This document shows, piece by piece, positions 1,205 to 63,829 of a stretch of DNA of 64,000 bases. Position 1 is the first letter of the stretch; every line of letters starts with the position of its first letter. The DNA is taken from assembly GCA_963725295.1 (NCBI GenBank), contig CAVRYB010000035.1, forward strand, positions 4,246-68,245, written 5' to 3'. The DNA is from an uncultured Acidobacteriaceae bacterium (lineage in GTDB: Bacteria; Acidobacteriota; Terriglobia; Terriglobales; Acidobacteriaceae). A program made the position numbers and the translations under genes. Below the pieces are notes generated by a model. That model was not told where the DNA came from. It did not search any database and saw only the letters and a list, made by a program, of their open reading frames with translations.

Positions 1205-2988
1205 ATGCGAGTTCTTCTCTTACACCCCGAAGATGATCTCCGCGGATCGTGGATTGGGCAGCGTTGGGATACGGTGATCGACCTCGGACGGGCACCGAGG
1301 TCCTTTTATGAAGAACGCAGTGCAGCACTGGGTTGTCCGGTCTGGAGCATCTTTGACCTTGCGGCAGAAGTCGCGGACTTGCAGAGCTTCCGTCCAGACA
1401 TCGAACTGGGCCTGGGACACGTCGTGGATCGGTTTGGGATCGACTGGTGGGGTGTAGTCAGCCTGCCGCTGCAACCGGAACTGCAGAGAATGCGATTGGC
1501 GATTCGGCTGGCGGAGAAGCTTCGAGGATGCCAAACGCTGGTGGCGACTCGTCCCTCGCTCACTGCTGAAGCGGTGTGTCAAAAGCTTGGAGCCCGGTTG
1601 CAATTGGTGTCTGGCGGGTTCCGCAGACGGCTGGTGCATGGGGGATTACGCCGCGCTTCGGCCCTGGCAAACCTGGAGCTTTCCACAACTGCGACAGGTC
1701 GTCTTTGATAAGTACGATCCGCACTATCAGTGGCGGAGAAAGCGGGCCGTTCGCCGAAGTCCAACTTGCGGCATGGGATCGACCCGTCGTGCTGTTGCCG
1801 TCGGCGTACTCGAATGTCACGAAGACGGCGGTCGGCTATCCGCAGATTTGCCGAAACAACACTTTCTGCTGGTGCTGGCTCGCGAGTCTGGGGCGGTTCC
1901 CCCGCTGCCAGAAAATGTCGAAGCCACACCACTCTCCAGATTTGCGCCAAGCGAGGTTGACCGGAGGGAATTGCAGTGCCTTGAAGAGAAATGGAAGCAA
2001 CTCGAGCGTTCGCTCGGAGAACATCCGGCCTTTCAGATACCAAACAAGCTGAGAGTATTAGAGAAAGCGTCACGATATTTGCGCTGGGGAATTACCATCC
2101 GCGACGCTTGGATGCGGGTCTATGAGGAGCATAACATTGTCAGTTGTTTGAGCGCGGATGACTCCAATCCCTACACGCGGATCCCGCTTCTATTGGCGCA
2201 ACGACGAAATATTCCTGCGGTGGCAGTCCATCACGGAGCTTTGGATTGCTTCATGGCATTCAAAGAGCTGAGGTTTTCGGACTACATCGCTAAAGGGGAA
2301 ATGGAGCGAGATTACCTGGAGGCGTATCTGCCGGGTCCCCGCCGATCGCATTCTCGTAGGCGCGGCGTCGACGCCCGATCGAAGTACTCGCGTTTGGAAT
2401 GATGATGCGCCGTGGATCACATTCTTTACCGAGCCCTACGACACAGATTCGTGGCGGGTGGAGGAAGTTTACCGAGAGTTGCTTCCACGTCTGCTTGCTC
2501 TTGCCCGCAACGCCGGTAAGACACTCGTGCTCAAACTGCATCCGTTTGAGAGCCTCCGGCAGCGAAAGAGTCTCGTGACACGATTGCTGGGCGCCACTGA
2601 GGGAAAGTTCGTCACGGTGTCCGATGCGCCAATGTCGAACGACATAATGAAGCGGACGTGGTGCGCGGTGACCGTTGAGTCAACTGTGGCATTCGATTGT
2701 GCGGCACGCGGGGTCCCGGCGTTTTTGTGCGGATGGTTGAGGCACGCTTATTCCGGATATGCTCCGCAGTATGCTCGTTTCGGCGTCGGACGGATGCTCA
2801 CCTGTGCGGATGAACTGCTATCGATACCGGACATGCTGAAGGAGACGATACCGGGGCCGGAGGTCGCGACGAAATTGGTAGAGGCAATGTCCCCGGATGC
2901 GTTGGCGGATGTTTTACTGGGCTCGAAGAGCGGCAAATCTCGATCGCACAGCGACGCGCCGGTGACGAGCGGCCGGACGAGTGGATAA
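1205..2988 (+). pseudogene. Polysaccharide-biosynthesis protein of uncertain family (GT-B / capsule-synthesis-like), reading frame broken about 4 times
   Basis: Protein-like translation hops frames. Frame 2, 1205 to ~1680: MRVLLLHPEDD...RRASALANLE. Frame 3 to ~1738: FPQLRQVVFDKYDPHYQWRRK. Frame 1 to ~1840: GPFAEVQLAAWDRPVVLLPSAYSNVTKTAVGY. Frame 3 to ~2335: DLPKQHFLLVLARESG...GEMERDYLEAY. Frame 1 to 2988: RVPADRILVGAAS...LKLHPFES...TVESTVAFDCAARGVPAF. Length 1784 nt is not a multiple of 3. Confidence 0.6.
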
Positions 2989-2997
2989 ACCTCCTTC

Positions 2998-4053
2998 ATG
3001 ATCACGATATTCACTCCGTCGTTCGCCGACGAGGCCAACACGAATGCGCAGAATCTGAGCGCTAAGGAAATTGTCAGCCGGCTGCCGGCGGATCGCTTTC
3101 GCGTGATCATGATGGCGGAGGGCGCGGTTGATCCGCGGATAGTTGCGCGGGGAAATACCGAGATTTGGCGCTGGTCACGGCGGGGAAATACAGCGAGGTT
3201 GCTGGCTCGTCTGCTGTTTTCAAAGATCGATATCTACTTCTTCCCACGGCCGGGTCCGCTGGAGACCGCCTTTCTTTTTTTCCGGCGCTCAGCTGGTCTT
3301 TCTATTTCGCTGGTGACTTATATCGTGATGGCGCTGGATGAGATCGAGGTGGAACCGGGGCTGGAGCGGCTGATCCGGGAGGCGGACTTCGTTCTCGGCA
3401 ACTCGCAATTCGTATCGCAGACGGTTCAGAACCGTTTTGCTGTGCCCGTCGCTACCATTCATAGCGGGATCAAGCGCGACGTTTTTTATCCTCCGTTGGT
3501 TGCGCGAACCGGCGATCCACTGCTCACGGCGCTGTACGCAGGTTCGTTCCAGGCGCGGAAGAGAGTGGAACTGGTGATTCGCGAAGCAGCGAAATGGCCT
3601 GCGGTTGAATTTCGCCTTGTCGGCAAGGGAGAAGAGGAACAGAAGTGCCGGGATTTGGTTCGCGAGTCAGGCTGCAGCAATGTCACCTTCGTCGGACACC
3701 TTCCCCAGCAGGGACTGGCTGAAGAAATGCGGAGAGCGGATTTGTTTCTTTTTCCGAGCATTCTGGAGGGACACCCGCAGGTCCTGGGCCAGGCAGCATC
3801 ATGTGGGTTGCCCGCGATTGCCATGGAGAAGTACCGTCCTGACTACGTCGTGAATGGTGAGACCGGGTACTTGGTAAAATCGGACATCGAATTCTCAGAA
3901 AAACTCGGTTTGTTACTCACCGATCACGAACTGCGGCGGCAGATGTCTGCGGCTGCGGCGCGGCATAGTTTGCAGTTTGATTGGGACAAGATCACGCACG
4001 ATTGGGAACAGGTGTTCGTGGAGGCGGCCTCGAAGCGTCGCGAAAAACAGTAA
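2998..4053 (+). CDS. Glycosyltransferase family 4 (Glycos_transf_1)
   Basis: 351-aa ORF. C-terminal GT-B motif LFLFPSILEGHPQVLGQAASCGLPAIAM...NGETGYLV. Confidence 0.8.
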   Translation: MITIFTPSFADEANTNAQNLSAKEIVSRLPADRFRVIMMAEGAVDPRIVARGNTEIWRWSRRGNTARLLARLLFSKIDIYFFPRPGPLETAFLFFRRSAGLSISLVTYIVMALDEIEVEPGLERLIREADFVLGNSQFVSQTVQNRFAVPVATIHSGIKRDVFYPPLVARTGDPLLTALYAGSFQARKRVELVIREAAKWPAVEFRLVGKGEEEQKCRDLVRESGCSNVTFVGHLPQQGLAEEMRRADLFLFPSILEGHPQVLGQAASCGLPAIAMEKYRPDYVVNGETGYLVKSDIEFSEKLGLLLTDHELRRQMSAAAARHSLQFDWDKITHDWEQVFVEAASKRREKQ

Positions 4054-5912
4054 TGTGCGGGATCTATGGTGTATTTGGCGGCGATGGCGTCGCGCAGTAT
4101 AAGTCGTGGGCCGCGCAGGCCGGGCAGTTATTGCAGCATCGTGGGCCGGACGGGACCGCGTGCCTGGAGTTGATGGGGGGGCGTTGTCTCCTCGGACATC
4201 GCCGCCTGTCAATCATCGATCTCGAGGGTGGCGCACAGCCGATCGCGAATGAAGATGAAACGATCTGGGTGGTTCTGAATGGCGAGATCTATAACTACAT
4301 TGAGATTCGCGAAAGGCTGATCGCCAAAGGGCACACGTTCCGCACTCACAGTGACACCGAAGTTCTGGTGCATCTCTACGAAGCAAAAGGCCATGAACTC
4401 GTCGACGATCTCGATGGCATGTTTGCGTTTGCCATTGTTGATGAGAAGAAGGAAGAACTTTTTCTGGCTCGCGATCGATACGGCGAAAAGCCTCTGTATT
4501 ATTCGCTCTTAACCGATGGAAAGCTTGCCTTCGCCTCGGAAATGAAGGCGCTGCTGCCGTTGCCGGAGCTGGATCGTGCCTTAGATGTCGCCGCGATCGC
4601 TCAGTTCCTGGCAGTCGGATACGTGCCGGCTCCGCGAACGCATTTTGAGGGCGTAAAGAAGTTGATGGCTGGCGAAGCGATATCTTTCCGAGCGAGCGCC
4701 GGGTTGCGAACGTGGCGTTATTGGCAGCCGAGAATCGAGCCGGGAACAAAGCCTCCGAGTCGCGAAGCGGCGGTGGAGGAAGTGCGGGCGCGCGTTTTGG
4801 AATCAGTCCGGCTGCGACTTCGGAGCGACGTTCCGGTTGGAGCGTTTCTTTCGGGAGGCGTGGACTCGACGTTCATTGCCAGCACGATCCGCGAGTTGGA
4901 ACCGGCGGCGAAGTTCAGTACCTTCTGCGCTTCGTTCGACGACCAAATGTTGGATGAAGCGCCCTACGCACGCCTGGTTGCCGAGCATCTGGGCACCGAT
5001 CACCACGAAGTTCACTTTTCAACGCACGAGCTCTTGGCGATCTTCGACGAGTTGATTGATCACTATGACGAGCCTTTCGGCGACGTCTCGATGTTCCCGA
5101 CTTTTGCTGTTTGCCGCGCGGCGCGCCAAGTCTGCAAAGTCATGCTCTCCGGTGACGGAGGGGACGAGGGCTTCGGCGGTTACACGGAGATGTTCGGTTA
5201 CTATCGCTGGAACGGTGTGCGGCGTGCGCCTGTGGTGAATGCCGCCGCACGGGGGCTACGGAAAATGTGGGGACAGGATTGGCGTGGGATCGGGCTGCTG
5301 GAGTTCTTATCCAAAAGTGATTGGACCCTGCTGCATCCGTCTCAGCAACGAGGTGTGGTTGCATCTTGTTTTCTTCCTGATCATCGCGGCGCGGCTGAGC
5401 GTGGGTTGCAGGAACTTGAAGAGCGCGAGTTGGAACATGCGCGCTTGCCCTACCCACTCTCGGCTTTCGAGGCGACGGTATCGGCCTATCTGCCAGAGCA
5501 GATCATGGTGAAAGTGGACCGCGCGAGTATGTCGGCTTCGCTGGAGTGCCGCGCGCCATTTCTGAATCCTGATCTGATGCGATTTGCCACGAGTCTCCCG
5601 CTTGATTATCACTTTGCAAAAGGCATGGGCAAAGCGATTCCGCGGGAGGCGCTTCCGGAGTGGGTCCCTGACGAAATTCGGTGGCGGCAGAAGCGCGGAT
5701 TTACGCCTCCGTTGTGCGCGTGGCTTCGCGGCGAGATCAAGAAAGAAATGGAAGAGAGCCTGGGCGAAGGGATGGGAGAACTGAAAAGGCTATTGGATCC
5801 GCGCCAGGCGAAAGAGCTTTTCCGCCAGCACCTGGCTGGTGCGGATCGCAGCGGGGCACTGTTTCGCTGGTTAGTTCTCAGCCGCCGCTGCCACGATGCC
5901 GTTCTCAACTGA
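4053..5912 (+). CDS. asnB: Asparagine synthase family amidotransferase (glutamine-hydrolysing), paralogue 1
   Basis: Starts MCGIYGVFGG (Ntn catalytic Cys2). GATase-7 motifs HRGPDG, LNGEIYNY, HSDTEV. PP-loop SGGVDST. The ATG overlaps the upstream TAA (TAATG). Confidence 0.85.
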   Translation: MCGIYGVFGGDGVAQYKSWAAQAGQLLQHRGPDGTACLELMGGRCLLGHRRLSIIDLEGGAQPIANEDETIWVVLNGEIYNYIEIRERLIAKGHTFRTHSDTEVLVHLYEAKGHELVDDLDGMFAFAIVDEKKEELFLARDRYGEKPLYYSLLTDGKLAFASEMKALLPLPELDRALDVAAIAQFLAVGYVPAPRTHFEGVKKLMAGEAISFRASAGLRTWRYWQPRIEPGTKPPSREAAVEEVRARVLESVRLRLRSDVPVGAFLSGGVDSTFIASTIRELEPAAKFSTFCASFDDQMLDEAPYARLVAEHLGTDHHEVHFSTHELLAIFDELIDHYDEPFGDVSMFPTFAVCRAARQVCKVMLSGDGGDEGFGGYTEMFGYYRWNGVRRAPVVNAAARGLRKMWGQDWRGIGLLEFLSKSDWTLLHPSQQRGVVASCFLPDHRGAAERGLQELEERELEHARLPYPLSAFEATVSAYLPEQIMVKVDRASMSASLECRAPFLNPDLMRFATSLPLDYHFAKGMGKAIPREALPEWVPDEIRWRQKRGFTPPLCAWLRGEIKKEMEESLGEGMGELKRLLDPRQAKELFRQHLAGADRSGALFRWLVLSRRCHDAVLN

Positions 5913-5922
5913 GGATGAGTAA

Positions 5923-7344: not shown

Positions 7345-8060
7345 GCACAAAATCCGGTGAGATCCGCAGGTCGATAACGGAGCCGAAAGACAGTGGGATG
7401 GATCTGATCCACCCTTCGATCCGCGACTTTAGCTATCTGGATTGCCGGCGGCGGGCCGAATTGATCGCTGAACACGCAGCGAAACTGCCGGCGGCTGCGA
7501 GCAATTTGTTGGATGTGGGCGGTAAAGGGAAGCCATACGCGTGTTTCTTTGACGGCCGAGTCGCCCACCACTATGTACTCGACGTCGCGCTGGCAACGTC
7601 GGTGGACGTCGTTGGCGACGGACGCCGCATGCCGTTTGCAGATGCATCAATGGACGTCGTATTGATTACGCAGGTTCTGGAGCACATTCCGGAGCCGATC
7701 GCGGTCATCGCCGAGATTTTTAGAATCCTGAAGCCGGGTGGAACGTTGCTGTTGAGTGTTCCGTCGATCTTTCCCCAACACGGCGCACCGGGCGATTACT
7801 GGCGCTACATGCCGCAGGGACTGGAGTTCATCTTGCGCGATTTCAAGAATGTGAAGGTTCAGGGAGAGGCGGGAACCGTACCGTCGATTTTTCTGGTGAT
7901 CAACGTCTACCTGCAACTTCTTACGGGACCCGTACCCTGGCTGCAGTCGTTTCTGCGCTGGACGATTTGTCCGCTGAATAATGTTGCCGGTCTGCTGGCG
8001 GGCAAGGTGTACCGGGGCAGCCAGTTTGCAAGCAATTATTTCGTGGTGGCCGTACGCTAG
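7341..8060 (+). CDS. Class I SAM-dependent methyltransferase
   Basis: Start MSTKSGEI overlaps the wzx stop (ATGA). Methyltransf_11-like LLDVGGKGKPY ... VLITQVLEHIPEP...ILKPGGTLLLSVP. Confidence 0.75.
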   Translation: MSTKSGEIRRSITEPKDSGMDLIHPSIRDFSYLDCRRRAELIAEHAAKLPAAASNLLDVGGKGKPYACFFDGRVAHHYVLDVALATSVDVVGDGRRMPFADASMDVVLITQVLEHIPEPIAVIAEIFRILKPGGTLLLSVPSIFPQHGAPGDYWRYMPQGLEFILRDFKNVKVQGEAGTVPSIFLVINVYLQLLTGPVPWLQSFLRWTICPLNNVAGLLAGKVYRGSQFASNYFVVAVR

Positions 8061-8099
8061 AATCATTGTTTCGTTCTCACGGACGCGGGGCGTGATTAA

Positions 8100-9098: not shown

Positions 9099-9153
9099 TG
9101 GAAAAAGCCGGGATTGCCCGACATGTCCGGGGCTCAGCAGTGGAATATCAACA

Positions 9154-10302
9154 ATGAGCCGCAAGCTCGTCATTCTCACCGAAATTATTGCGCCCTATCG
9201 CATTCCGGTATTCAATGCGCTCGCAGGTCAGCCGGGCGTTGATCTGCATGTGATTTTCCTGGCGGAGACGGATGAAGCGCTCCGCCAATGGCGGGTCTAC
9301 AAGAATGAGATCAAGTTTTCGCATCAAGTTCTTCCGTCGTGGCGTTGGCGGATGGGAAAGAGAAATATTCTCGTCAACCGGGGATTATTATCGGCCCTGA
9401 GCAAAGCGAAGCCGCAGGTGATCATTTGCGGGGGATATAACTATGCTGCCTCGTGGTTCGGTCTATGGTGGGCGAAGCGTCATAAAGCCGAATTTGTGTT
9501 GTGGTCAGAAAGCAACAGCCAGGATGCGCGTTCCGGAAATCGTCGGGTCGAATCTTTGAAAATGTTTTTCTTGCGGCACTGCGACAGGTTTGTGGTGCCC
9601 GGGAAAGCCTCTTTTGAGTATCTGACGTCGCTCGGATGCCCGGCGGCGAAGATCTGGGCTGCACCGAACGCGATTGACAACGATCTGTTTGCCGGGCGCG
9701 CAGAATCCGCGAGAAGCCAGGCCGCGCAAATTAAAGAGAAGCTGGGACTGCCCGCACGATTTATTCTCTTTGTGGGGCGACTGGTACCAGAGAAGGGCAT
9801 TTTCGATTTGCTCGGAGCCTATGCCAAACTTGAGGGTGCATTGCGATCCGAGGTAGGCTTGGTATTTGCAGGCGACGGCATCTCGCGAGGGGAATTGATG
9901 GAGAAAGCGCAGGAAATCAGTCCGGGTGCGGTTTTCTTTCCGGGTTTTGCGCAGCGTGACGATTTAGCGAATCTCTATGCGCTCGCGGAGGGACTGGTCT
10001 TGCCGACGCACACCGATACCTGGGGATTAGTAATCAACGAAGCGATGGCATGCGGGCTTCCGGTGATTGTGAGTGACGTGGCGGGATGCGTGCCCGATCT
10101 GGTGGAAGATGGATGGAACGGCTACGTCGTGCCGGCGAATGATCCGGAGAAGCTGAGCGTCGCCATGGATGCTCTGTTGAGAAAACCGGAACTTCGCCAG
10201 TCGATGAAGGCGCACAGTTTCGATCGAATTCGGAACTATTCTCCCCAAGCTTGTGCCAGCGGTCTAGCGGCAGCCGGGTTGTCTTTGGTGGGGACGCGAT
10301 GA
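9154..10302 (+). CDS. Glycosyltransferase family 4
   Basis: Start MSRKLVILTEIIAPYRIPVF inside ORF 9073..10302. Motifs FVGRLVPEKG and LPTHTDTWGLVINEAMACGLPVIVSD. Confidence 0.8.
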   Translation: MSRKLVILTEIIAPYRIPVFNALAGQPGVDLHVIFLAETDEALRQWRVYKNEIKFSHQVLPSWRWRMGKRNILVNRGLLSALSKAKPQVIICGGYNYAASWFGLWWAKRHKAEFVLWSESNSQDARSGNRRVESLKMFFLRHCDRFVVPGKASFEYLTSLGCPAAKIWAAPNAIDNDLFAGRAESARSQAAQIKEKLGLPARFILFVGRLVPEKGIFDLLGAYAKLEGALRSEVGLVFAGDGISRGELMEKAQEISPGAVFFPGFAQRDDLANLYALAEGLVLPTHTDTWGLVINEAMACGLPVIVSDVAGCVPDLVEDGWNGYVVPANDPEKLSVAMDALLRKPELRQSMKAHSFDRIRNYSPQACASGLAAAGLSLVGTR

Positions 10303-11730
10303 AGATACAGCACTGGATAGGACTTGCCCTTGGCGCTTGCGTTGCGCTCTACCTTCTTTATACAAATCTGCAATTCTTCGGCGATCTCAATTTTCTGGGC
10401 GGAATCCTGCTGCTGGAAGTACTGATCGTCTGTATCTGGAAATACGAACAGCGTTTTTTTGTGTTCCTGTTAATCGCGTTTGTATGGGCGGGCATGCACG
10501 TTCCATTGCAGGGCACATGGACAGCGGGACGGTGGGCTGTTTTGGCGGGGGGCGCCGCGGCTGGCTATGCGGTTTGGCTGAAGAATCCGCGGAGGCAGTT
10601 CGGAACCATGCATTTGCTGGCATTCTTCTGCGTCAGCGCTGCATTTGTCTCCGCGACTGTCTCTCAGTACGTGCAGATGGCATCGTTGAAAGCCTGCAGT
10701 CTGTTTCTTCTTTTTCTGTATTGCTCGTCGGGAGGACGTCTTGCCGTCATCGACCGCGAGGAGCGCTTTTTTTCTGGGCTGGTCTGGGGAAGCGAGATCG
10801 CGGTTTACGTTACGGCATTTTGCTATCTCGTGCTGGGGCAGACGATATGGGGAAATCCTAACTCTCTCGGCGCCGCGATGAGCATCGGACTATTTCCCGT
10901 TCTGCTGTGGGGATGGATCACTAGTGAGGGACCTGGCGTACGGGCCCGCCGGTTGGGCGCTCTCCTGCTCTGTACCTATTTGGTTTTCTTCAGCATGGCG
11001 CGGGCCGGAATCGTCTCGGATCTCCGTGGTGACCTTGATCTTCTGCGTGTGCTTGCGCCAGTACAAGCTGCTGGTGAAGGCAGTGGCGATACTTGCGGTT
11101 CTGATCACGGTGACAGGAATCTACGATCCAGCGGCATTGACCACCCGGCTGGGGAATTTCGAAGAGGCGGTCATTTACAAAGGACACAAGGGCGAAGGAA
11201 TGCTGGGCTCGCGGAAATCACCCTGGGAGAAAACGATTCAAACGATCAAGGAGCATCCGTGGTTTGGAACAGGATACGGAACGAGTCCCACCGGCGAGGA
11301 TCCCGGAAATTCGTTTGGTACGATTTCTTCGAGTGCAGAGACGGTTCGCGAGCACGGTAGCAGCTACATGACAATTGCCGAATGGGTCGGCCTTTTGGGT
11401 GTGGCTCCGTTTGCCGCGATCCTGCTACTGACCTTCTCAAATGTGTGGAAAGTTTGTAAGTGGATGAACCGGACTTCCGATCCGCGGAACTACGCAATCC
11501 CGTTGGCGATGGTAGTGCTGTCAGGACTTCTCCACGCGAATTTCGAGGATTGGTTGTTTGCCGTTGGTGCTTACCCTAGCATCTATTTCTGGTTTTTTGC
11601 CTTCATCCTGGCGGATCTTGTTCCCGCAACTGCTGCAGCCGACGCTCCTAGTGCGGTTTCAGGATATCCGGCACCGTTGCCCGCCCAGTTCAGAACTGTT
11701 TCGCCCAAGCCCGCGTTGTCCAATCGATGA
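10299..11730 (+). pseudogene. Wzy / O-antigen-ligase-family polymerase, one frameshift near 11016-11022
   Basis: MKIQHWIGLAL...FFSMARAGIVS reads in one frame. It continues as ISVVTLIFCVCLRQYK...EHPWFGTGYGTS...HGSSYMTIAEWVGLLGV in the +1 frame (ORFs 10251..11360 and 10924..11730). Length 1432 nt = 3n+1. The start overlaps the upstream stop (ATGA). Confidence 0.75.
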
Positions 11731-17974: not shown

Positions 17975-19972
17975 ATGTGTGGCATCAGCGGACTGGTGAA
18001 TTGCGGCGATAGCGAGACACTCGTCCGAATGACGAACGTGCAGACGCATCGCGGACCCGACGACTCTGGGGTCTGGGAGCGGCATTTCCCGGATGGCGCC
18101 TACATTGGGCTGGGAAGCCGCCGGTTGGCAATTCTCGATCTTTCCGCCGAAGGCCACATGCCGATGAGCAACGAAGACGGCACGGTGTGGATCACCTACA
18201 ACGGCGAGATTTACAACTTTGCCGATTTGCGCCGCGAACTGGAGAGCAAGGGCCATCGCTTTCGCTCACACACGGATACCGAAGCGATTGTTCATCTTTA
18301 CGAGGAATACGGTCCTGATCGTTTTAGTGATTGCCTGAATCGCCTGGATGGAATGTTCGCGCTGGCAATCTGTGACTTGCGCGGCGCCTCGCCAAAGTTA
18401 TTTCTGGCTCGCGATCATTTCGGCATCAAACCTTTCTATTACTACGAGCGCGGCGGAAAGCTCGCCTTCGCATCGGAAGTCAAAGCCCTGCTCGAAGTGC
18501 CGGGGATCGAAGCGCGCATGGATTTGGACGCGCTCGATAAATACCTGACATTTCTTTGGGTGCCGGACCCGATGACCATGTTCGAAGGGATTCGCAAGCT
18601 CCCAGCCGGGAACTATGCGGTTTGGCAGGGCGGCGAGTTCAAGGTCACCCAGTATTGGGATTTGACGTTTCCTCCGGCGGACTACTCGTTTACGAGGACG
18701 GAGGCGGATTTGGCGGACGAGATTAGGGAAAGATTCTGCGCCTCGGTCGAGCGGCAGATGGTTAGCGATGTCCCAATTGGAGCGTTTCTGAGCGCAGGGC
18801 TTGATTCATCGAGTATCGTCGCGGCGATGGCGCGAAAGCAGCCGGTACGGACTTATACGATCACGTTCCCGGGAAAATATCGGGTGGGTGAAAGCACAAT
18901 TGACGATCCGGGCGTTCCGAAGCGGCTCGCACAGAAGTTGGGTTGTGAGCACCATGAGATCGTGGTCGAGCCGGATGTGGTTGACTTGTTGCCGAATTTG
19001 ACCTGGCACATGGACGAGCCCACGGCGGATCCTGCGATCATCACGGCATATCTTGTCTGTCGCGCGGCGCGAGAGCAGGCGACCGTACTTCTGTCCGGCG
19101 TTGGCGGAGACGAAATATTTGCCGGGTATCGAAAGCATGTGGCGAGTGCGTGGGCACAAGACTATCGAGGTCTTCCGGAATTCGCCCGATCGGCGATCGA
19201 GCGAACATTGCTGGGCGTGCCATCCATGCGCGGGACTCGTCTGAAAGGATCGGTGCGACTGGCCAAGAAAATGGCGCGTAGCGCGGCGCTTGGCCCGAAA
19301 GAGGCGTTCATCAGGAACTGCACGTATCTGGATGCTCAGCAGAAGGCGGGTTTGTATGCTCTAGAATCGCAACAGGGCAATCCGGCTGAGCAACATTTGG
19401 CGGCCTTCGATCGAGTGCGAGGGGCGGATTTCCTGAACCAGATGCTTTATTTGGATACGAAAATCTTTATGCCGACGCTGAACCTGACGTACAACGACAA
19501 GATGAGCATGGCGTCATCGGTTGAAGTTCGGGTGCCTTTTTTGGATCGCGAGTTGGCGGAGTTTGTCGCATGGAACGTGAAGCCGGAGTTGAAGCTGAAA
19601 GGGAAATGGCGTCCGGTGACGAAGCACATCTTTCGGGAAGCGATGCGCGGCATGCTGCCCGAAGAAGTGATGCGGCAGCCGAAAGCCGGTTTCGCGGCGC
19701 CCGTAGATTACTGGCTGGCAAACGATTTGCGGCCGATGGTGGACGATCTTCTGTCAGACGAACAGGTCCGGAGGCGGGGATTGTTTCGTCCGGCTGTGGT
19801 GCGTCAGTATATTGACGAACATCGGAGCGGCCGGGAAGACTGGTCGATGCAGATCTGGCAACTGCTGACGCTGGAAATATGGATGCAGCTGTTCTTCGAT
19901 GGGGGCGCGAAAAAATTGGCCGAGCAGCAAATCAATCTGCCACAACGTTCTCGACAGTTGGCGACTGCATGA
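17975..19972 (+). CDS. asnB: Asparagine synthase family amidotransferase, paralogue 3
   Basis: Real start MCGISGLV at 17975, inside ORF 17792..19972. Motifs HRGPDDSG, YNGEIYNF, HTDTEA, and SAGLDSS. Confidence 0.85.
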   Translation: MCGISGLVNCGDSETLVRMTNVQTHRGPDDSGVWERHFPDGAYIGLGSRRLAILDLSAEGHMPMSNEDGTVWITYNGEIYNFADLRRELESKGHRFRSHTDTEAIVHLYEEYGPDRFSDCLNRLDGMFALAICDLRGASPKLFLARDHFGIKPFYYYERGGKLAFASEVKALLEVPGIEARMDLDALDKYLTFLWVPDPMTMFEGIRKLPAGNYAVWQGGEFKVTQYWDLTFPPADYSFTRTEADLADEIRERFCASVERQMVSDVPIGAFLSAGLDSSSIVAAMARKQPVRTYTITFPGKYRVGESTIDDPGVPKRLAQKLGCEHHEIVVEPDVVDLLPNLTWHMDEPTADPAIITAYLVCRAAREQATVLLSGVGGDEIFAGYRKHVASAWAQDYRGLPEFARSAIERTLLGVPSMRGTRLKGSVRLAKKMARSAALGPKEAFIRNCTYLDAQQKAGLYALESQQGNPAEQHLAAFDRVRGADFLNQMLYLDTKIFMPTLNLTYNDKMSMASSVEVRVPFLDRELAEFVAWNVKPELKLKGKWRPVTKHIFREAMRGMLPEEVMRQPKAGFAAPVDYWLANDLRPMVDDLLSDEQVRRRGLFRPAVVRQYIDEHRSGREDWSMQIWQLLTLEIWMQLFFDGGAKKLAEQQINLPQRSRQLATA

Positions 19973-22188
19973 AGCAACTTCTACAAGATGCGCGCACGGG
20001 CGAATTGAAGGTCGCGGAGGTTCCGGCGCCGCAGCTGTTGCCCGGCTGTGTGCTGGTTCGAGCAGCCGCCTCGCTGGTTTCGGCCGGCACGGAGCGGGCC
20101 TCGGCCGAATTCGCGGGCAAGAATTTACTGGCGAAGGCGAAGGCGCGTCCCGATCTTGTGCGCGACGTGACGGCCAAGATGCGGCGCGATGGACTAAGCG
20201 CGACGCTGCAAACTGTGCGATCGCGTCTCGATCAGCCGCAGTCGGTCGGCTACAGCAGTGCAGGTGTTGTCGTGGCGGTCGGGGATGGCGTCACCGATAT
20301 TAACGTTGGCGATCGAGTAGCCTGCGCGGGAGCAGGGTATGCGGTGCACGCCGAGATCGCGTGTGTGCCACGCATGCTGGTGGCGAAGATCCCTGGCGAT
20401 AGCGGTCTCAACGTTTCGTGGGAAGAAGCTGCCTTCGGTACGTTGGGTGCGATTTGTCTGCACGGGATTCGTACATCCGAAGTAGCACTCGGAGATACAG
20501 TCGCAGTGGTTGGCCTGGGATTGCTGGGACAGATTACGGCGCAACTGCTGACGGCTGCTGGATGCCGCGTGTTTGGCATGGATCTTTTGCAGCAGCGCGC
20601 TGATCTGGCGGTGCTCAGCGGTGCCGAAACAGTATGTACGGATGCTCGAGAATTCCGCGATATTTGCTTTCAGCAAACGGGCGGCGTGGGTGTGGACTCG
20701 GTATTGATTACGGCCGAGACTCCAGAGCAGCGAACCCGTGAACCTGGCGGCGGAACTGGCGCGCGATCGGGCGATCATTGTCGCCGTCGGTACCGTTGGG
20801 ATGGAGCTGCAGCGCAAACTCTATTACGAGAAGGAATTGGATTTTCGCATCTCACGTTCGTATGGGCCAGGGCGCTATGACAGCGCGTACGAGCAAAAAG
20901 GGCGCGATTATCCGATCGGGCATGTGCGCTGGACCGAGACGCGCAACATGGCCGCTTTTCTGCAGTTGATTGCAGATGGAAAACTGAATTTGCCGGCGTT
21001 GATCACCCACCGTTTTCCGATGGAAGAGGCAACACGCGCCTACGATTTGATTACCGGAATGACGCGAGAGTTCTTTCTCGGGGTGATGATCAAGTACCCG
21101 GAGATTGAGTTAGCCAACGCTTCGATTTCGCCGGAGAAGATTGCGATCCCGACTGCGCCCGTGTCCACCGGCGCGCTCGGTCTGTGCGTACTCGGCGCGG
21201 GGAACTTCGCACAGAATACGTTGTTGCCCGCGCTGAAGGAGATCCCCGGCGTTTCGTTCGTTGGCGTTTGCAATGCAACTGGTCCACGGAGCCGGAACGC
21301 GGCTGAGAAATTCGGATTCTCCTACTGTACGAATTCAGAGCTGGAACTTCTGCGCGACCCGAAGATCAGCGCCGTCGTCATAGCCACACGACACAGTCTG
21401 CACGCCAGCCAGACGCTGGCAGCGCTCCGGGCGGGGAAGGCGGTCTTTTGCGAAAAGCCGCTTTGCCTGAACGAACGTGAACTATCCGAGTTAGTGAGCG
21501 TGTCGGCGCACGAAAGTGGGCCGCTGCTGGTGGTCGGGTTCAACCGTCGATTCGCGCCGATGGCGGGACAGATGAAAAGGTTTGTCGACGAAATTCACGA
21601 ACCGATAGCGATGCATTATCGCGTGAATGCCGGCTTCATCCCCGCCGATCATTGGGTGAACGATGAAGAGCAAGGAGGCGGCGGATCCTCGGTGAGATGT
21701 GCCATTTCGTTGACTTTCTGTGCTTTCTTGCTGGCGCGTGCCCAGTCGAAGTGCAGGCGCAGAGTTTGGGCAACGCTGGACAATACAGTACGGACAACAT
21801 AGTTGCCACGCTGAAGTTCGCGAATGGCGCGCTGGGGACGATCAGCTATCTGGCGAACGGTGATAAGTCGGCGTCGAAAGAGCGGATCGAAGTGTTCGGC
21901 GGCGGCTCGGTGGTGATTCTCGAGGATTTTCGATATCTCGAACTGGTTCGCAACGGGCGCAAGCAGATCACGCGCGCTCGCTGGGGACAGGACAAGGGGC
22001 ATAAGGCAGAGATGCAGGCCTTTGTGGACGCGCTGAAGGGGAAGACTCCAGCGCCGATCCCTCTGGAGCAGATCATTGGTTCGACACTTACGACGTTGCG
22101 GCTAAAGAACTCCTGTCAGACGGGACAAGCGCTGACCATCAACCTGAGCGAATTCGTGGATGCGGCTTTGGACGAAAGACCGCACTGA
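19969..22188 (+). pseudogene. Bi-domain oxidoreductase (Zn-ADH/MDR-like N-terminus + Gfo/Idh/MocA C-terminus), two frameshifts
   Basis: MKQLLQDARTGELKV...VGLGLLGQITAQLL...VLITAET reads in frame 1. SSEPVNLAAELARDRAIIVAVG...CVLGAGNFAQNTLLPAL...FCEKPL...HWVNDEEQGGG reads in frame 2. RILGEMCHFVDFL...ERPH is back in frame 1. Breaks lie near 20716-20726 and 21678-21684. Total length 2220 nt = 3n. Confidence 0.75.
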
Positions 22189-22237: not shown

Positions 22238-23983
22238 ATGCTGATTCTGGGCCTAAATATGTTTCACGCCGATTCCTCGGCGGCGATTGTCGATGATGGA
22301 AAAATTTTGTTTGCCCGTCGCGGAGGAGCGGTTGAACCGGCACAAACATTACGGCGGCTTTCCGGCGCTTGCGGTGAAAGCATGCCTGGACGCAGCGGGC
22401 GCGAAGATCACCGATGTGGAGCACGTTGCAGTTGGGCAAGACAGCGATGCCAATCTCGCGAAGAAAGTGCAGTATGCCTTGGCAAATCCCGCCAAAGTGC
22501 TGAACTTTATCAAAATGCGGCAGCGCAAGGAGTCGATGCGCGACGTGCGCTCACTCTTGTCGAAAGCGCTGGACGTTGATGTTGTCGACCCTGAAATTTC
22601 GGGAACATCATTTCAGAACATCACATCGCGCACATCGCGAGCTCGTACTACTGTTCGCCTTGGGAAAGGCGGCGGGCTTCAGCTACGACGGCTCGGGAGA
22701 TTTTGTTTCCACGATGACCGCGCGTTGCGAGGGGCCCGAAATTCAGGTTCTCGACCGCGTTTTTCTCCCGCACTCGCTCGGCAGCTTTTACACCATGATT
22801 TGCGACTTTATCGGATACAGGAAGTACGGCGATGAAGGCAAGGTCATGGGGCTGGCTCCATACGGCAAAGATACATATGTGGAGCAGATTCGGAAAATCG
22901 TCGCGCTCAAAAATGGCAGCTTTCAGCTGAACATGAGCTACTTCAAGCCGCTGGGGAGCAGCCAGGGAATGCAGGTTCTACCAGACGGAACCGTGCGGCT
23001 GGCGCGGCATTTCTCTGACAAGATGGAGAAGCTCTTCGGTTCTCCGACGGAGCCGCACGCTGAAATCACGCAGCGCGACATGGATCTCGCGTACGCCATG
23101 CAACATGTTTTCGAGGAAGTGTTCTTTCACCTTGCCAACGAACTGCACAAGAGTGTTCCAAACGAAAATCTTGCCATGGCCGGAGGGTGTGCGCTCAACA
23201 GCGTGGCAAATGGAAAGTTGTTTGCGCGAACACCCTTCCAGCGAACCTGGATTCAACCCGCTGCAGGCGACGAAGGCTTGGCGATTGGAGCGGCGCTGCA
23301 CACTTATCACTCTGTGCTGAAGCGCCGCGCCGCGAGCAGATCGATCATGCGTACTCGGACCGGAATTTTCCGAGTCGCAAGTCAAAACCGCGTTGGATAG
23401 TGCCGGCGTAAAGTATCAGCGCCTGGATCGCGAGCCTTTGCTGGATGCGGCTTCCGAACAGATGGTGAAGGGCAATGTCGTCGGGTGGTTTCAGGGTCGC
23501 ATGGAGTGGGGGCCGCGCGCTTTGGGCAATCGATCGATTGTGACGCATCCGGGACTGCCCGATATGAAGGACGTACTAAACGCACGCATCAAGCATCGCG
23601 AGTGGTTCCGGCCGTTCGCTCCGGCGATTCTGGCCGAGGCGCAGCACGAGTATTTTGAACACGATCACCCATCGCCCTACATGCTTCATGTTTACAAGAT
23701 TCGTCCAGAAAAACGAAAGAGTCTGTGCGCGGTCAATCACGTTGACAACACCGGGCGATTGCAAACGGTGGCACGTGACGAAAACCCGCTCTACTACGAT
23801 CTCATTCAGACGTTTGGCCGAAAGACAGGCATTCCGGTCATTCTCAACACCAGTTTTAACGAGAATGAGCCGATCGTGTGTACGCCCCAGGAAGCGATCG
23901 ATTGCTTTCAGCGGACCAAGATGGACGTGCTTGCGATCGGGCCGTTCCTGGCGTGCAAAGGTGATCACAAGGCCAAGGCCTGA
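22238..23983 (+). pseudogene. NodU/CmcH-family carbamoyltransferase, about five frameshifts
   Basis: Family-typical segments sit in different frames: MLILGLNMFHADSSAAIVDDGKILFA | VAEERLNRHKHYGGFPALAV...DVVDPEI | EHHIAHIASSYYCSPWE | KAAGFSYDGSGDF...AGGCALNSVANGK...ALHTYHSVL | APRREQIDHAY | LGPEFSESQVKTALDSAGVKYQRL...GRMEWGPRALGNRSIV...ILNTSFNENEPIVCTP. Breaks lie near 22311-22318, 22596-22601, 22663-22669, 23316-23324 and 23350-23356. Confidence 0.75.
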
Positions 23984-52197: not shown

Positions 52198-52227
52198 CGG
52201 GCGAATTTCGCTCTATAGTAAGGTTCA

Positions 52228-52281: not shown

Positions 52282-52311
52282 AACTCAATTACTCAAAATA
52301 CAGGAGATTGA

Positions 52312-55068: not shown

Positions 55069-55103
55069 ACCAGCCGAGTCCGTTGGCAAGGAAATTGTTT
55101 GTG

Positions 55104-55140
55104 ACGCGGATGCGCGTGATCCCATCCGCGTTTGCATTTT
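55104..55140 (+). terminator. Putative bidirectional terminator between convergent genes
   Basis: Hairpin ACGCGGAT-(12 nt loop)-ATCCGCGT followed by TTGCATTTT. Confidence 0.5.
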
Positions 55141-58089: not shown

Positions 58090-58116
58090 CCCGGCACTCC
58101 GATCGCGTCGTGGAGA

Positions 58117-59760: not shown

Positions 59761-59869
59761 CGTAGGTCCACGTTGTAACAGCGCTCCTCTCGGTACTTCG
59801 GCGAGAGTCCGAACCATCGTTACCGAAGGTTGGAGCTTACGCGTCGTCTCGAATGTTCTCGAACAGCAT

Positions 59870-61510
59870 TTAAGATCCGGCTCGGGCAGCGTTGGCCCGC
59901 TCGCGAGACCTGCTGGCAAGGTCTCCGGAGTCTTCGTGCATGTCGACCTTGAACTGTTCCACCAGGCGGCGCAGCTGGGTAGAGGTTTCCACCAGTTGCT
60001 GCGATGCCTTCTGCGTGTCGGTGGCTCCCCGTGTTGTACTCTTTGCTGCCTCGGCCACCCCGGCGATGTTGCTGGTGATCTCGCCGCTGCCCTGCGCGGC
60101 TTCGCTGACGTTGCGGGTCATCTCGTTGGTGGTCGCGTTCTGCTCTTCGACGGCCGTGGCGATGGTTCCGGAAATGTCGTTGATCTGGGTGATGACGCCG
60201 CTGATCGAGCCAATGGCAGCGACGGCTTCCTTGGTGTCGGTCTGAATGGCTTCAATCTTGCGGCTGATATCTTCGGTGGCCTTGGCGGTTTCTTTGGCGA
60301 GTTCTTTGACTTCGTTGGCGACGACGGCGAAGCCCTTACCGGCCTCGCCGGCGCGGGCGGCTTCGATGGTGGCGTTCAGGGCGAGGAGATTGGTCTGCTG
60401 GGCGATGGAGGTGATGACTTTGATGACCTGACCGATTTCGGCGGAGGAGTCGCCGAGTTTGGCGACGGTGGCATTGGTGGTTTCAGCGACCTTGACGGCG
60501 GAAGTGGCGACGCGTGCGGCTTCGGTGGCGTTCTTGGCGATTTCCTTGATGCTGGCGCCCATCTGTTCGGCACCGGTGGCGACAGTATGGAGGTTCTGAC
60601 TGACCTGCTGGGCGGCAGTCGAGACGACGTTGGCCTGAGCGGAAGTTTCTTCAGAGTTGGCGGTGATCTGCTGGCTGGTGGCGTTCAGTTCCTCGCTGGC
60701 GCTGGCCACGTGGAGCGCCGAACGCGCGATCGATTGAATCAGCCCGTGCAGATTGTTTTTCATGCCGTTGAGCGCCTCTCCGGCTCGGCCGAGTTCATCT
60801 TGAGAAGTGATTTCCAAGTCCTCAGCCACAAGATTGTGGGCCGCAATCTCTTGAATCAGGGCAAGCATGCGGTTAATCGCAACGATGATGGCGCGAGTTA
60901 CGAGAATCGACACCACCAAACCGACGACCAGCCCTGCCAGCGCCAGTGCCGTCACCACCAATCGCAAGCGGGATTCGGCCGCGGATTGTTCTTTTAGAAG
61001 CTCGTCCTTCAACCGGTTTTCCAGATTCACCAGATCGTTGATGCTGTTGCGCAATTGGGTTCGCTTTTCTCCTGTCGACGCGCTGAACGCGAGCTCTTCC
61101 GCCTCTTTCGCGTTGCCCGCCCGCCGCAACTCGATTTCACGGTCGGCAATGGCGCGGTATTCGCCATAATAGCGGTGGATCTCCGCGTGTAATCTCTTGC
61201 CTTCGTCGGTGACGATGGCTTCCTGCAGCTTCTCCATGTTCTCGGAGAATTCGTTCTTCCCCTCCAAATCAATCTTCAGCAGATCTTCTCTTCCGGCAAG
61301 CAGATAGCCCCGGATTCCAGTTGTCTGCTTCTCGATCGCGGCTTCAACCTGGGAAGACATGTCCTTCTTGGTCATCATCAGAACGACGCGGTTAGAGATC
61401 TCCGTGAGCTGGCCGACCGAGGTGTAGGCGGCGTATCCCATGGCCGCGAGGATTAACAGCAATGCCCCGAAACCCGCCCCCAATTTCATTTTCAGACTTA
61501 ACCTGTTCAC
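59870..61510 (-). CDS. Methyl-accepting chemotaxis protein with CHASE3-like / 4-helix-bundle sensor
   Basis: 546 aa. [13 protein letters not shown] is CHASE3-like. HAMP domain. MA domain with [30 protein letters not shown]. Confidence 0.88.
60065..60586. repeat. Near-identical paralogous segment (copy A, in MCP2)
   Basis: Hand alignment with 61733-62256 shows roughly 7-10 substitutions plus two 1-nt length differences over ~522 nt. Confidence 0.85.
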
Positions 61511-61546: not shown

Positions 61547-63240
61547 TTATCTTCCTGCACGCGCCGCCATGTTCTGGGCGGGCGGGGCAACTGCATCATT
61601 CCCACTTGTGTTGATCTTGAACTGTTCCACCAGCCGACGAAGCTTGACGGATGTGAGCACAAGGTCTTGCGCCGCTTTTTGCGTATTCGAGGCTCCGTTG
61701 GCGACGTCTTGCGCGGCGGTCGCCACGACGCTGATGTTGCTGGTGATCTCGCCGCTGCCCTGGGCGGCTTCGCTGACGTTGCGGGTCATCTCGTTGGTGG
61801 TCGCGTTCTGTTCTTCGACGGCCGTGGCGATGGTTCCGGAAATGTCGTTGATCTGGTTGATGACGCCGCTGATCGAGCCAAATGGCAGCGACGGCTTCCT
61901 TGGTGTCGGTCTGAATGGCTTCGATCTTGCGGCTGATATCTTCGGTGGCCTTGGCGGTTTCTTTGGCGAGTTCTTTGACTTCGTTGGCGACGACGGCGAA
62001 GCCCTTACCGGCCTCGCCGGCGCGGGCGGCTTCGATGGTGGCGTTCAGGGCGAGGAGATTGGTCTGCTGGGCGATGGAGGTGATGACTTTGATGACCTGT
62101 CCGATTTCGGCGGAGGAGTCGCCGAGTTTGGCGACGGTGGCATTGGTGGTTTCAGCGACCTTGACGGCGGAAGTGGCGACGCGTGGCGGCTTCGGTGGCG
62201 TTCTTGGCGATTTCCTTGATGCTGGCGCCCATCTCTTCGGCGCCGGTGGCGACAGTTTGCAGGTTCTGGCTGACGGTCTGCGCGGCCTTGAGACCACGTT
62301 CAGCTTGGGCGGAAGTCTCTCCGAGTTGGCGGTGATCTGCTGGCTGGTCGTAGTTCAGTTCCTCGCTCGCTCCCGCTTCTTCACGGCGCTGCCGAGAGAT
62401 GAGTGAATAGACCGGTGCAGATTCTCATGCAGTTGAGGGCGTTGGTTACTCGCCAATTTCGTGATCGGCGAGCACGGGCAAGTCGCGGACCGTCAGGTCA
62501 TTGGCCGCGATGCTGTTGGCCAGTGCCACAGTCCCGGACAGACGGCTTGACTACGATTTTGCGCACCGCGAAAAACACCACCGCGGAAGCAGCGAGAAGA
62601 GTGAGGAAGCTGGAGAGAAATAAGCCAAACGAATTGGCACCGGCGGTTTTCACCAGGCCATCCGTCGACGCCCGCACCGAGAAGGCTCCGCGCAGATCGC
62701 CCTTCTTCATGCCTTCCTTTTTGTAGCCGAACGGGTCCTCTCTCCGGCGGGATCGCCGTGGCACTGCAGGCAATCCTGGGTCAGACGAACCGGCTGGGCG
62801 TAGCGCATGAAGTTCTTTCCGTCTTCGACTTCCTGTTCCGAGAACTCCTTTAACTCAGGATCTTTGGCAAACGCCTCGAGCGCTCTCTGCTCAAACCCGT
62901 CGGGGCGGTTCTTGGGGTCGCGCGGGCTGAGAGAAGGAGTGGAGAATTCCATGTCACGGGTCTTGGCATACTGCTGCGCGACACTCCATGCGATCACCAC
63001 TGGCACTTGTGTAAGCGCCTTGAATTCACCCCCCGGAACCATCGTATTGATGTTGGAAGCGAACCAGTCTTTCGTGGTGCTGGCCATTCCCGTAACCTGA
63101 CGCACTTTGTCACGAAACGCCTCTTCCGCTTGCTGGTTGATGCGGCGCTGGGTGATCCAGAAGCTGATCGCGGAGGTTATCACCAGGGTGGCAACGATGG
63201 CCCCGACTATTTTCCCCGTCAATCTGACCTGTTTCAGCAT
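61547..63240 (-). pseudogene. Methyl-accepting chemotaxis protein with haem-c (CxxCH) Tll0287/DUF3365-like sensor, at least nine frame breaks
   Basis: N-terminus MLKQVRLTGKIVGAIVATLV...FMRYAQPVRLTQDCLQCHGDPAGE reads in one frame. DPFGYKKEGMKKGDLRGAF...TM, then RLSGTVALANSIAANDLTVRDLPVLADHEIGE (HAMP), [33 protein letters not shown]..., [12 protein letters not shown]...KEAVAAI and [18 protein letters not shown]...RLVEQFK fall in shifting frames. Length 1694 nt = 3n+2. Confidence 0.75.
61733..62256. repeat. Near-identical paralogous segment (copy B, in MCP3)
   Basis: Direct repeat of 60065-60586. It carries an extra A at 61880-61882 (AAA vs AA) and an extra G at 62185-62186 (GTGGCGGC vs GTGCGGC). 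Confidence 0.85.
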
Positions 63241-63368
63241 TGGTGTCCTCGCTGTTTCCCGGGCGCCCACGCGTTCCCGGTTATCCCTGAACTGGAGTTA
63301 TTGCCGTCACTCTGTCTGATCCAGAATGTCCCAGAAGCGGCCGATGGCCTGCCGAACGGGCGCCGTCC

Positions 63369-63829
63369 CTAAGCTCTTCCGGTCGCCGCAGACTCGGTTG
63401 CATCTTGCATCTGACAAGCCTTTTCAATATCCAATACATGCATGAGCCGGCCTTTCAGTTTGTGGACCCCGAGAATCATGTTGCGTACTGATCCGCGCAG
63501 GGTTTCGGGAGGCGGCTCGAAGGATCTTCTTCGACCTCGACCACATCGCCGATCTCGTCGACAACCAGGCTGACTGGACCATCTTCGGAGCGCACCACCA
63601 CGTTCATCGTCTCGCTGCCGGGCGGACTCGGCTCGAGTTCGAGGCGGCGGCGCAGATCCACCGCCGTGACAATCTGTCCGCGCAGGTTGATCAGGCCGCT
63701 TACCACCGCCGGCGCGAGCGGAACCCTCGTCATATCGAGCGCACGCATGACTTCCTGAACCCCCTTGAGTTCCACGCCAAAGAGCAGCTTGTCGAGATAG
63801 AACGTGCAGAATTGTGAAGTGTGCGCCAT
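63369..63829 (-). pseudogene. cheW: Chemotaxis coupling protein CheW, one frameshift near 63518-63528
   Basis: MAHTSQFCTFYLDKLLFGVELKGVQEV...SLVVDEIGDVVEVEED continues in another frame as FEPPPETLRGSVRNMILGVHKLKGRLMHVLDIEKAC...TGRA-stop at 63369. Length 461 nt = 3n+2. Confidence 0.7.

Follow-up and report, generated by a model that had tools for sequence, protein, structure and literature searches.

Genes and frame breaks in the window

The window, meaning the whole stretch of 64,000 nt that was analysed, is part of an 80,151-bp contig from an uncultured Terriglobales bacterium (read run ERR11630400). It holds an EPS cluster, whose broken genes lie on the forward strand between 1205 and 23983, and chemotaxis genes on the reverse strand. 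Frame breaks were located with our own protein-to-DNA aligner, which permits frameshifts, with intact reference orthologues taken from soil contigs of short-read assemblies (L008), from other Terriglobales MAGs (L012, L013 and L015) and from a sister strain (L003, 97–99% identical). This alignment gave 23 frame breaks of 1–2 nt in six genes, and Pfam searches found single families divided among frames in the broken genes. The first-pass annotation had named the same genes with about 22 breaks; genes and breaks proved real, but the total is 23, with six rather than five in the carbamoyltransferase gene. The alignment returned the same counts as before for the gene at 1205–2988 (four), wzy (one), the bi-domain oxidoreductase gene (two) and cheW (one), and the earlier figure of at least nine for MCP3 agrees with nine net breaks plus compensated pairs.

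The gene at 1205..2988 is a polysaccharide-cluster gene of unknown family with a weak DUF6716 glycosyltransferase-like match. Its breaks at about 1676 (+1), 1785 (−2), 1846 (−1) and 2322 (+1) spread it over three frames. After repair it encodes a stop-free protein of 571 aa (584–628 aa in orthologues), whose identity of 65.7% to the L013 protein lies inside the range of the intact neighbour genes. The gene for a wzy-type O-antigen/EPS polymerase (Wzy_C; 10299..11730) contains one surplus base at about 11019 (G to GG), and removal of one base yields a 476-aa protein equal in length to its L008 orthologue. The bi-domain oxidoreductase gene (ADH_N/ADH_zinc_N and GFO_IDH_MocA; 19969..22188) is broken at 20722 (+1, C to CC) and 21683 (−1); the repaired protein has 739 aa and is 81% identical to the intact 771-aa orthologue of L008. 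We considered a recurrent break hotspot in this gene and rejected it, as the fragments in other assemblies end at about residues 400–480, in the inter-domain linker.

The carbamoyltransferase gene (Carbam_trans_N and Carbam_trans_C; 22238..23983) is broken at 22316, 22584, 22615 (+1) and at 22664, 23323, 23355 (−1). Its repaired product is 89.7% identical to that of L008, the highest conservation in the cluster, and the stretch of 17 codons between two of its breaks matches the orthologue at 100%. A candidate seventh break at 23981 was rejected: it also occurs in an independent k-mer contig (L006) of the sister strain, and the gene therefore has a genuine shorter C-terminus with an early stop at 23983.

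On the reverse strand lies MCP3 (61547..63240), a chemoreceptor gene whose product combines a Tll0287-like sensor, which carries a CLQCH motif, with HAMP and MCP signalling domains. Its breaks lie at 62739, 62542, 62448, 62425, 62378, 62352, 62324, 62184 and 61880, five of the nine falling in 62324–62448, and the repaired protein of 564 aa shows 97% identity to that of the sister strain. The reverse-strand cheW gene (63369..63829) lacks one base at 63523, at a site outside any homopolymer. The unrepaired product ends at 117 aa, and the repaired CheW of 153 aa is 99.3% identical to the intact CheW of the sister strain. MCP2 (59870..61510, reverse strand), an intact tandem paralogue of MCP3, has no frameshift relative to the sister strain.

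Distribution and sequence context of the breaks

No frameshift was found elsewhere in the approximately 38 kb of the window for which orthologues could be compared (111–1163, 2998–10299, 11727–19945, 23995–29822 and 46113–61510), as the first-pass annotation had stated for the neighbouring genes, and Pfam domains of the genes at 28.7–46 kb are covered full-length. Between the radical-SAM and S9 peptidase genes, an overlapping ORF (33131–34018) had raised the suspicion of a further break, but it reflects a lipoprotein gene of its own that starts at about 33413. When 24 sites (23981 included) are considered, the breaks fill 10 one-kb bins, against a mean of 20.1 under uniform placement, and 10 or fewer bins were obtained in 0 of 20,000 uniform simulations of these 24 sites. 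The first-pass annotation was right that a uniform error rate would not yield such a pattern. Neighbouring breaks are also closer than expected: seven pairs lie no more than 50 nt apart, where 3.4 would be expected (p = 0.02).

The gene, which had been taken as the unit of the phenomenon, does not describe this distribution. The breaks instead form four patches, two of which run over gene borders: 1676–2322, with the four breaks of the gene at 1205–2988; 11019, with the single break of wzy; patch C at 20722–23355, with eight breaks in 2.6 kb across the border between the oxidoreductase and carbamoyltransferase genes; and patch D at 61880–63523, with 10 breaks in 1.6 kb across the border between MCP3 and cheW.

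Approximately half of the precisely placed indels lie outside homopolymers and none lies in a long one; the contexts are runs of 1–3 nt, among them CCC, GG and TTT, or no run at all. The homopolymer sites noted earlier at 22314, 61880 and 62185 were recovered, whereas the one placed at 2335 is better placed at about 2322. The absence of indels from long homopolymers implies that these are not the classic systematic errors of Nanopore sequencing, and an explanation by low read support is required.

Repaired genes, sister assemblies and k-mer contigs

Repair of the breaks restores six full-length proteins that are colinear with their orthologues, with conserved residues flanking the breaks. The comparison with related genomes that the first-pass annotation had proposed showed the orthologues in short-read assemblies and other MAGs to be intact, as single ORFs in a syntenic cluster. 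No in-frame stop remains in the approximately 3,000 codons of the repaired genes; if as few as 25% of inactivating events were nonsense mutations, the probability of finding none alongside 23–24 frameshifts would be about 0.001. Unique amino-acid changes number 26 in the window and 20 in the relative for the carbamoyltransferase, and seven and five for MCP3, and the divergence of the repaired wzy lies inside the range of the intact neighbour genes. In the comparison with the sister strain, MCP3 outside a divergent tract has a dN/dS of 0.10 (21 synonymous and seven nonsynonymous differences) and cheW one of 0.11; the values for the intact MCP2 and MCP1 are 0.11 and 0.23. The divergent MCP3 tract of 170 nt (62290–62460) has a dS of 0.43 and a dN/dS of 0.30. 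Signs of relaxed selection, sought in the broken genes as nonsense codons, raised dN/dS, excess lineage-specific change and larger deletions, were not found.

None of the MCP3 and cheW indels of the window is present in the sister strain L003, in which cheW is intact and MCP3 has a single break at another site. The L003 contig has frameshifts of its own in murB (two), clpP, tig, MCP1 and a gene for a 279-aa protein, all of which are intact in the window. As the essential genes among these cannot all be pseudogenes, data of this kind evidently yield indel errors. A suspected break at the 3′ end of tig in the window was dismissed: judged from the C-terminus encoded in the window, which we take to be trigger-factor-like, the sister contig is likelier to be in error.

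A second sister contig (L005) contains 41 frameshifts in three genes, approximately one per 150 nt, and none at the positions broken in the oxidoreductase and carbamoyltransferase genes of the window. Once repaired, these genes are stop-free and their proteins are 84–91% identical to those of L008. L005 thus shows throughout the error signature of the patches, at a similar density. We rejected L005 as a close reference for the EPS region on account of its divergence of 10–30% and its many own frameshifts, and used it as a positive control. The EPS segment differs by 10–30% between strains, and two variants 3% apart occur within one sample. A search with the full carbamoyltransferase gave matches of at most 84% identity, and hence no close relative for the EPS patch.

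Logan provides k-mer assemblies of public read runs, including run ERR11630400 from which the window derives. The k-mer contigs that we retrieved from this run are 100% identical to the window at 11278–13947, 15313–19696 and 24397–26094, and reach none of the breaks: the contig near wzy begins 259 nt past the break at 11019 rather than across it, and the contigs end at 19696 and restart at 24397, on either side of patch C. Exact matches in Logan were found for none of five broken-gene fragments and for eight of nine intact genes (at most 352 aa; Fisher p = 0.003), and the k-mer assembly lacks the truncated ORF of cheW. Repaired CheW (in four repaired-codon variants), oxidoreductase and Wzy had no exact entry in a collection of 15 billion proteins, and two homology searches with chimeric break-spanning peptides as queries returned no near-identical intact copies. 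The best break-spanning matches were 92% identical for the oxidoreductase, 79% for wzy and 65% for the gene at 1205–2988; for MCP3 the best match was that of the sister strain.

Origin of the frame breaks

From these analyses, we consider it likely that the breaks are consensus errors, introduced during assembly or polishing of a long-read-only metagenome contig, and not mutations of the organism. The actual genes are probably intact and functional. The first-pass annotation had left both genuine decay and local failure of polishing open; local failure is now favoured, and decay is disfavoured by the lack of nonsense codons and of accelerated protein evolution, the purifying dN/dS, the intact orthologues, the errors in the sister assemblies and the lack of support in the k-mer assembly of the run. 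The contig probably stems from a Nanopore-only soil metagenome assembled with Flye and Medaka; platform and project are suggested by the Flye-style contig names of the sister assemblies and by the closest database relatives, which are long-read MAGs of Microflora Danica. In that project Nanopore data alone were assembled with Flye (--meta --nano-hq) and polished once with Medaka, and Nanopore-associated errors are reported there for MAGs of lower coverage. R10.4 reads are approximately 98–99% accurate, and a near-finished consensus needs about 40x coverage.

Most of the contig would have had enough read support for an error-free consensus, whereas in the four patches, about 5 kb in total, the effective support may have fallen to one or a few reads. 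Probably the strain-variable EPS and chemoreceptor segments differ among co-existing strains, so that few reads would match the assembly backbone. The patches would then keep errors like those of raw reads, at approximately one 1-nt indel per 210 nt. This cause, low coverage or heterogeneity, is inferred; the cleanness of the remaining contig means that a special local cause has to be assumed. Paralogues elsewhere, which had been put forward as a cause, could apply to MCP3 only, as no repeat of the other patches occurs within the window; a low effective coverage or a mixture of strains is the better fit.

Frameshifts caused by indels are documented for Nanopore-only genome and metagenome assemblies (Sereika et al. 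2022, PMC9262707), and frameshift-correction tools such as proovframe have been made for that problem (bioRxiv 10.1101/2021.08.23.457338). The window resembles such cases in that one-base indels split genes, frame correction restores them and sister assemblies break elsewhere, and in those cases the error rate depends on coverage. It differs from the classic Nanopore errors, which lie in long homopolymers and occur genome-wide at low coverage, in that the contig is clean but for four short patches. A clean contig with indels in runs of 1–3 nt or in no run suggests that read support was lost locally, not that homopolymers were systematically miscalled. A second likeness is to collapsed strain heterogeneity in long-read metagenomes, which Strainberry, a strain-separation tool, is presented as addressing (PMC8302730). 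The affected loci are strain-variable here as well, as seen in the mosaic structure of the EPS cluster, the diverged tract of MCP3 and the two variants from one sample, but a literal merge of two alleles is suggested at one site only (62184).

That site also bears on the possibility that reads of MCP2, or of another MCP gene, were used to polish MCP3 and produced a hybrid consensus, a reading confined to patch D that we consider unlikely. MCP2 and MCP3 share a common core of approximately 540 nt at 98% identity, the window at 62184 reads GCCGCCACG and thereby combines the MCP3-type C with the MCP2-type A of one synonymous difference, and the noisy tract has a few window-specific bases that agree with MCP2. 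Of the window-specific differences in this tract, however, most correspond to neither paralogue, and seven of the nine MCP3 breaks as well as the cheW break lie outside the common core. The tract substitutions are biased towards synonymous changes (dN/dS 0.30), which speaks for a real, diverged allele and not for noise, and the three patches of the EPS cluster would be left unexplained. We regard as quite unlikely a mixed origin, in which the patches with multiple hits are artefacts and the breaks at 11019 in wzy, at 63523 in cheW, or both, are real strain-specific alleles or polymorphisms. A lone 1-nt indel without a decay signature would be invisible to selection tests, the cheW deletion lies outside a homopolymer and populations are heterogeneous at these loci; yet cheW shares its 1.6-kb patch with the errors of MCP3, its truncated ORF is missing from the k-mer assembly, the k-mer contig near wzy starts only after the break, and orthologues and sister strain are intact.

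Genuine pseudogenes occur in Mycobacterium leprae and Salmonella Typhi, and the window resembles these genomes in having frameshifted genes beside intact neighbours. Genuine decay, however, is also accompanied by nonsense mutations, larger deletions, a raised dN/dS and disruptions that recur in independent isolates, none of which was seen for the window. Decay of six accessory genes by accumulated indels, with the remaining EPS and chemotaxis clusters kept under selection, is in our view very unlikely. The breaks do affect accessory functions that vary between strains (EPS synthesis, a single chemoreceptor of three and one of several genes with a CheW domain), the other approximately 50 kb is clean, unlike the outcome of a global error process, and neither look-ups in protein collections nor break-spanning searches yielded an intact gene identical in sequence. 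Genes with six to nine independent frameshifts would nevertheless have undergone long neutral decay, which is at odds with the absence of nonsense codons and of excess change and with the dN/dS of 0.10. Under decay, the most conserved protein of the cluster would be a pseudogene product, a broken wzy would stand beside approximately 20 perfect genes that depend on it, and patches would run over gene borders; the MCP3 and cheW indels are moreover absent from the sister strain, and the k-mer assembly of this run contains none of the truncated ORFs. A negligible probability attaches to programmed frameshifting or phase variation, with the breaks as functional recoding sites or on/off switches. 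Some breaks do lie at short runs (CCC, GG, TTT), but these are only 1–3 nt long, no slippery heptamer or long repeat is present, a single gene can hold up to nine breaks in both directions, and the single ORF of every orthologue at the break sites effectively refutes this reading.

Taken at face value, the window would lead an annotation pipeline to call six pseudogenes and suggest the loss of a Wzy-dependent polysaccharide pathway and of part of the chemotaxis input, which is probably wrong. If the breaks are consensus errors, the finding looks like a quality warning and not like new biology. Contigs from Nanopore-only metagenomes can be flawless for tens of kilobases and still contain short stretches of raw-read quality, and these seem to sit in strain-variable accessory loci, where real gene loss would be sought. 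Pseudogene counts, calls of presence or absence in pangenomes and selection scans on such MAGs therefore need frameshift-aware checks. It is highly improbable that the indels are real products of patch-wise mutagenesis, such as the 'mutation showers' of error-prone repair at breaks or recombination tracts, or of a strain-level inactivation too recent to have left a substitution signature. Real breaks would represent an unusual clustered indel mutagenesis that deserves a closer look.

Number and placement of the frame breaks

The ORF layout of the window shows overlapping same-strand fragments at the genes named in the first-pass annotation, with Pfam families divided among different frames. 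Counting the breaks requires intact relatives as references. One such relative, the short-read soil contig L008, has a cluster syntenic with the window; there, wzy, both glycosyltransferases, two asnB genes and their neighbours are single ORFs, and L008 also provided a 771-aa bi-domain oxidoreductase and a 589-aa carbamoyltransferase, each in one ORF. Orthologues of 1205–2988 (584–628 aa) and wzy (about 475–510 aa) were taken from other MAGs, and a contig of a 97–99% identical sister strain (L003) spans 45–64 kb of the window. Frameshift-tolerant protein-to-DNA alignment to these relatives essentially reproduced the list of breaks drawn up in the first-pass annotation, with 4 in 1205–2988, 1 in wzy, 2 in the oxidoreductase, 6 in the carbamoyltransferase, 9 in the chemoreceptor gene MCP3 and 1 in cheW, 23 altogether. 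An apparent extra break at 23981 recurs in a k-mer contig assembled independently for the sister strain and thus reflects a real, slightly shorter carbamoyltransferase C-terminus: one extra T (23975–24001) makes the protein of this lineage stop six codons before the end of the L008 orthologue. This small difference is genuine and not to be counted as error.

The breaks fall in 10 one-kb bins, whereas 20 are expected on average under uniform placement and 0 of 20,000 simulations gave 10 or fewer, so a uniform error rate cannot explain the pattern, as had been claimed. They form four patches (1676–2322, 11019, 20722–23355 and 61880–63523) that together cover about 4.9 kb at an average of roughly one break per 210 nt, and two of the four cross gene borders. 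Spacing within genes is also tighter than random (7 neighbour pairs at ≤50 nt vs 3.4 expected, p = 0.02), and of the indels that could be placed precisely, about half lie outside homopolymers. The neighbouring genes are indeed intact: the other window genes with an orthologue, about 38 kb, contain zero frameshifts in frameshift-tolerant alignment, and domain coverage is complete for the genes at 28.7–46 kb. An overlapping ORF at 33131–34018, suspected as a break, proved to be a separate lipoprotein gene.

Gene decay and consensus error

Real pseudogenes accumulate nonsense substitutions alongside frameshifts. The corrected sequences, about 3,000 codons in all, are free of stops, and residues beside each break are conserved; from break 22615 to break 22664, for example, all 17 codons match the orthologue exactly. 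At a nonsense share of 25%, zero nonsense changes beside 23–24 frameshifts have a probability of about 0.001. Decay with 6–9 independent frameshifts per gene would also imply a long neutral period, which is absent from every measure. Unique changes are balanced in relative-rate counts (carbamoyltransferase 26 vs 20, MCP3 7 vs 5), and the window-to-relative ratios of wzy and 1205–2988 lie within the range that intact neighbours show for the same species triplets. Outside a divergent tract, MCP3 differs from the sister strain by 21 synonymous and 7 nonsynonymous changes, and its dN/dS of 0.10 resembles that of its intact tandem paralogue MCP2 (0.11) and of cheW (0.11). Decay likewise fits poorly with a broken wzy beside about 20 flawless cluster genes. 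Real alleles may account for the isolated single breaks in wzy and cheW, and would leave no trace in the tests used. True decay of all six genes is very unlikely. The first-pass annotation had offered decay and local polishing failure as two readings; the absence of stops, the low dN/dS and the balanced rates count against the former, and we regard the breaks as probably artefacts of the consensus.

This is supported by two sister contigs of assembly ERZ25039480. L003 (contig_57227; window 46–60 kb) is itself broken by seven or more frameshifts, in murB (2), clpP, tig, MCP1, MCP3 and a 279-aa gene, several of which are essential. At every in-gene indel that separates the window from L003 outside MCP3 and cheW, the window ORF is full-length and that of L003 broken (murB, clpP, tig, MCP1 and the 279-aa gene); thus, the deposited sister MAG carries false pseudogenes in essential genes. 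The window also reads through the site of the L003 frameshift in MCP3. L005 (contig_113311) has 41 frameshifts, mostly insertions, in asnB, oxidoreductase and carbamoyltransferase genes; none of the 41 coincides with a window position, and after correction zero stops remain and identity to L008 is 84–91%. This contig is effectively unpolished, and its breaks have exactly the signature seen in the window patches, at a similar density (about one per 150 nt vs one per 210 nt). Reads of the R10.4 type are about 98–99% accurate, and a near-finished consensus from them requires roughly 40-fold coverage. On our own estimate of the indel share among read errors, the patch density is therefore as expected of a consensus built from a single read or very few.

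For five broken genes, the exact truncated ORF is known only from the NCBI/ENA contig and occurs in 0 of 5 cases in Logan, the k-mer assemblies of public read runs, vs 8 of 9 intact genes of similar size (Fisher p = 0.003). All three k-mer contigs retrieved from the window's own read run, ERR11630400, end before reaching breaks. Assembly of this type requires every 31-mer at least twice, and its silence at the breaks fits thin or conflicting read support. Look-ups of the corrected cheW, wzy and oxidoreductase and homology searches with break-spanning peptides found no intact copy of identical sequence.

Strain variability at the broken loci

Frameshift artefacts in Nanopore-only assemblies are already well described; what sets this case apart is only its patchiness, an otherwise clean contig dropping to raw-read quality in short islands at strain-variable loci. 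The finding is no biological discovery, and calls for caution when pseudogenes and pangenomes are analysed in long-read MAGs. The affected loci are strain-variable. Divergence from the polysaccharide (EPS) contig of a sister sample is 25–30% at 17.1–18 kb, about 10% at 18–24.3 kb and 2–3% beyond 24.6 kb, and a Flye contig and a k-mer contig from that one sample represent variants 3% apart, so several strains co-exist. The EPS cluster is a strain mosaic (window 17100–24300; L005:1681–9000). This variability, together with the divergent MCP3 tract, suggests that the backbone of a patch may derive from a variant that few reads carry, so that polishing would fail locally; alternatively, reads of two variants may have been piled together, with the same outcome.

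The MCP3 tract (62290–62460, 170 nt at the HAMP-signalling junction) contains five of the breaks and has a dS of 0.43 vs 0.06 elsewhere in the gene, with a dN/dS of 0.30. These values indicate a real divergent allele, and the segment looks like a recombination tract from one. At site 62184 (GCCGCCACG) an MCP3-type C and an MCP2-type A stand together in what looks like a literal merge, and mis-placed paralogue reads may thus contribute to the patch at 61880–63523, where most differences match neither paralogue. MCP2 and MCP3 (59941–60775 and 61609–62440) have about 540 nt of core sequence in common (98% identity), and several substitutions are common to both within a strain and different between the window and the sister strain, indicating probable concerted evolution of the signalling domain by gene conversion. 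The MCP3 sensor (62707–63240) has a Tll0287-like domain with a CLQCH motif and may thus bind haem in the periplasm; receptors of this type, about 565 aa long, occur widely in Terriglobales metagenomes.

Origin and gene content of the window

Exact-sequence look-ups place the window within an 80,151-bp contig in NCBI and ENA, and k-mer contigs of ERR11630400 match it at 100% identity over 11278–13947, 15313–19696 and 24397–26094. Its proteins are best matched by MAGs with the labels Terriglobales, Terriglobia or Candidatus Sulfotelmatobacter, and loci of several 'MFD...bin' MAGs, whose contigs are named in Flye style, are among the closest in species-representative genomes. Microflora Danica, in its long-read project, used Nanopore-only data, assembled with Flye (--meta --nano-hq) followed by one Medaka round, and reports Nanopore-associated errors for lower-coverage MAGs; we infer that the contig is a product of this project.

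A Wzy-type polysaccharide cluster occupies about the first 30 kb of the window, which also holds the housekeeping genes amidase, lon, clpX, clpP, tig and murB and a chemotaxis cluster including three chemoreceptors. Unusual domain combinations occur in a 629-aa protein (30326–32215; PilZ, GAF and Sel1 repeats) and an 837-aa protein (36254–38767; GAF, AMIN and Amidase_3). Downstream of an ECF sigma factor gene (50335–50916), the segment 49060–49930 is unalignable between the window and the sister strain, in which two genes of ~190 aa without Pfam match (49113–49697 and 49710–50324) are replaced or highly divergent.
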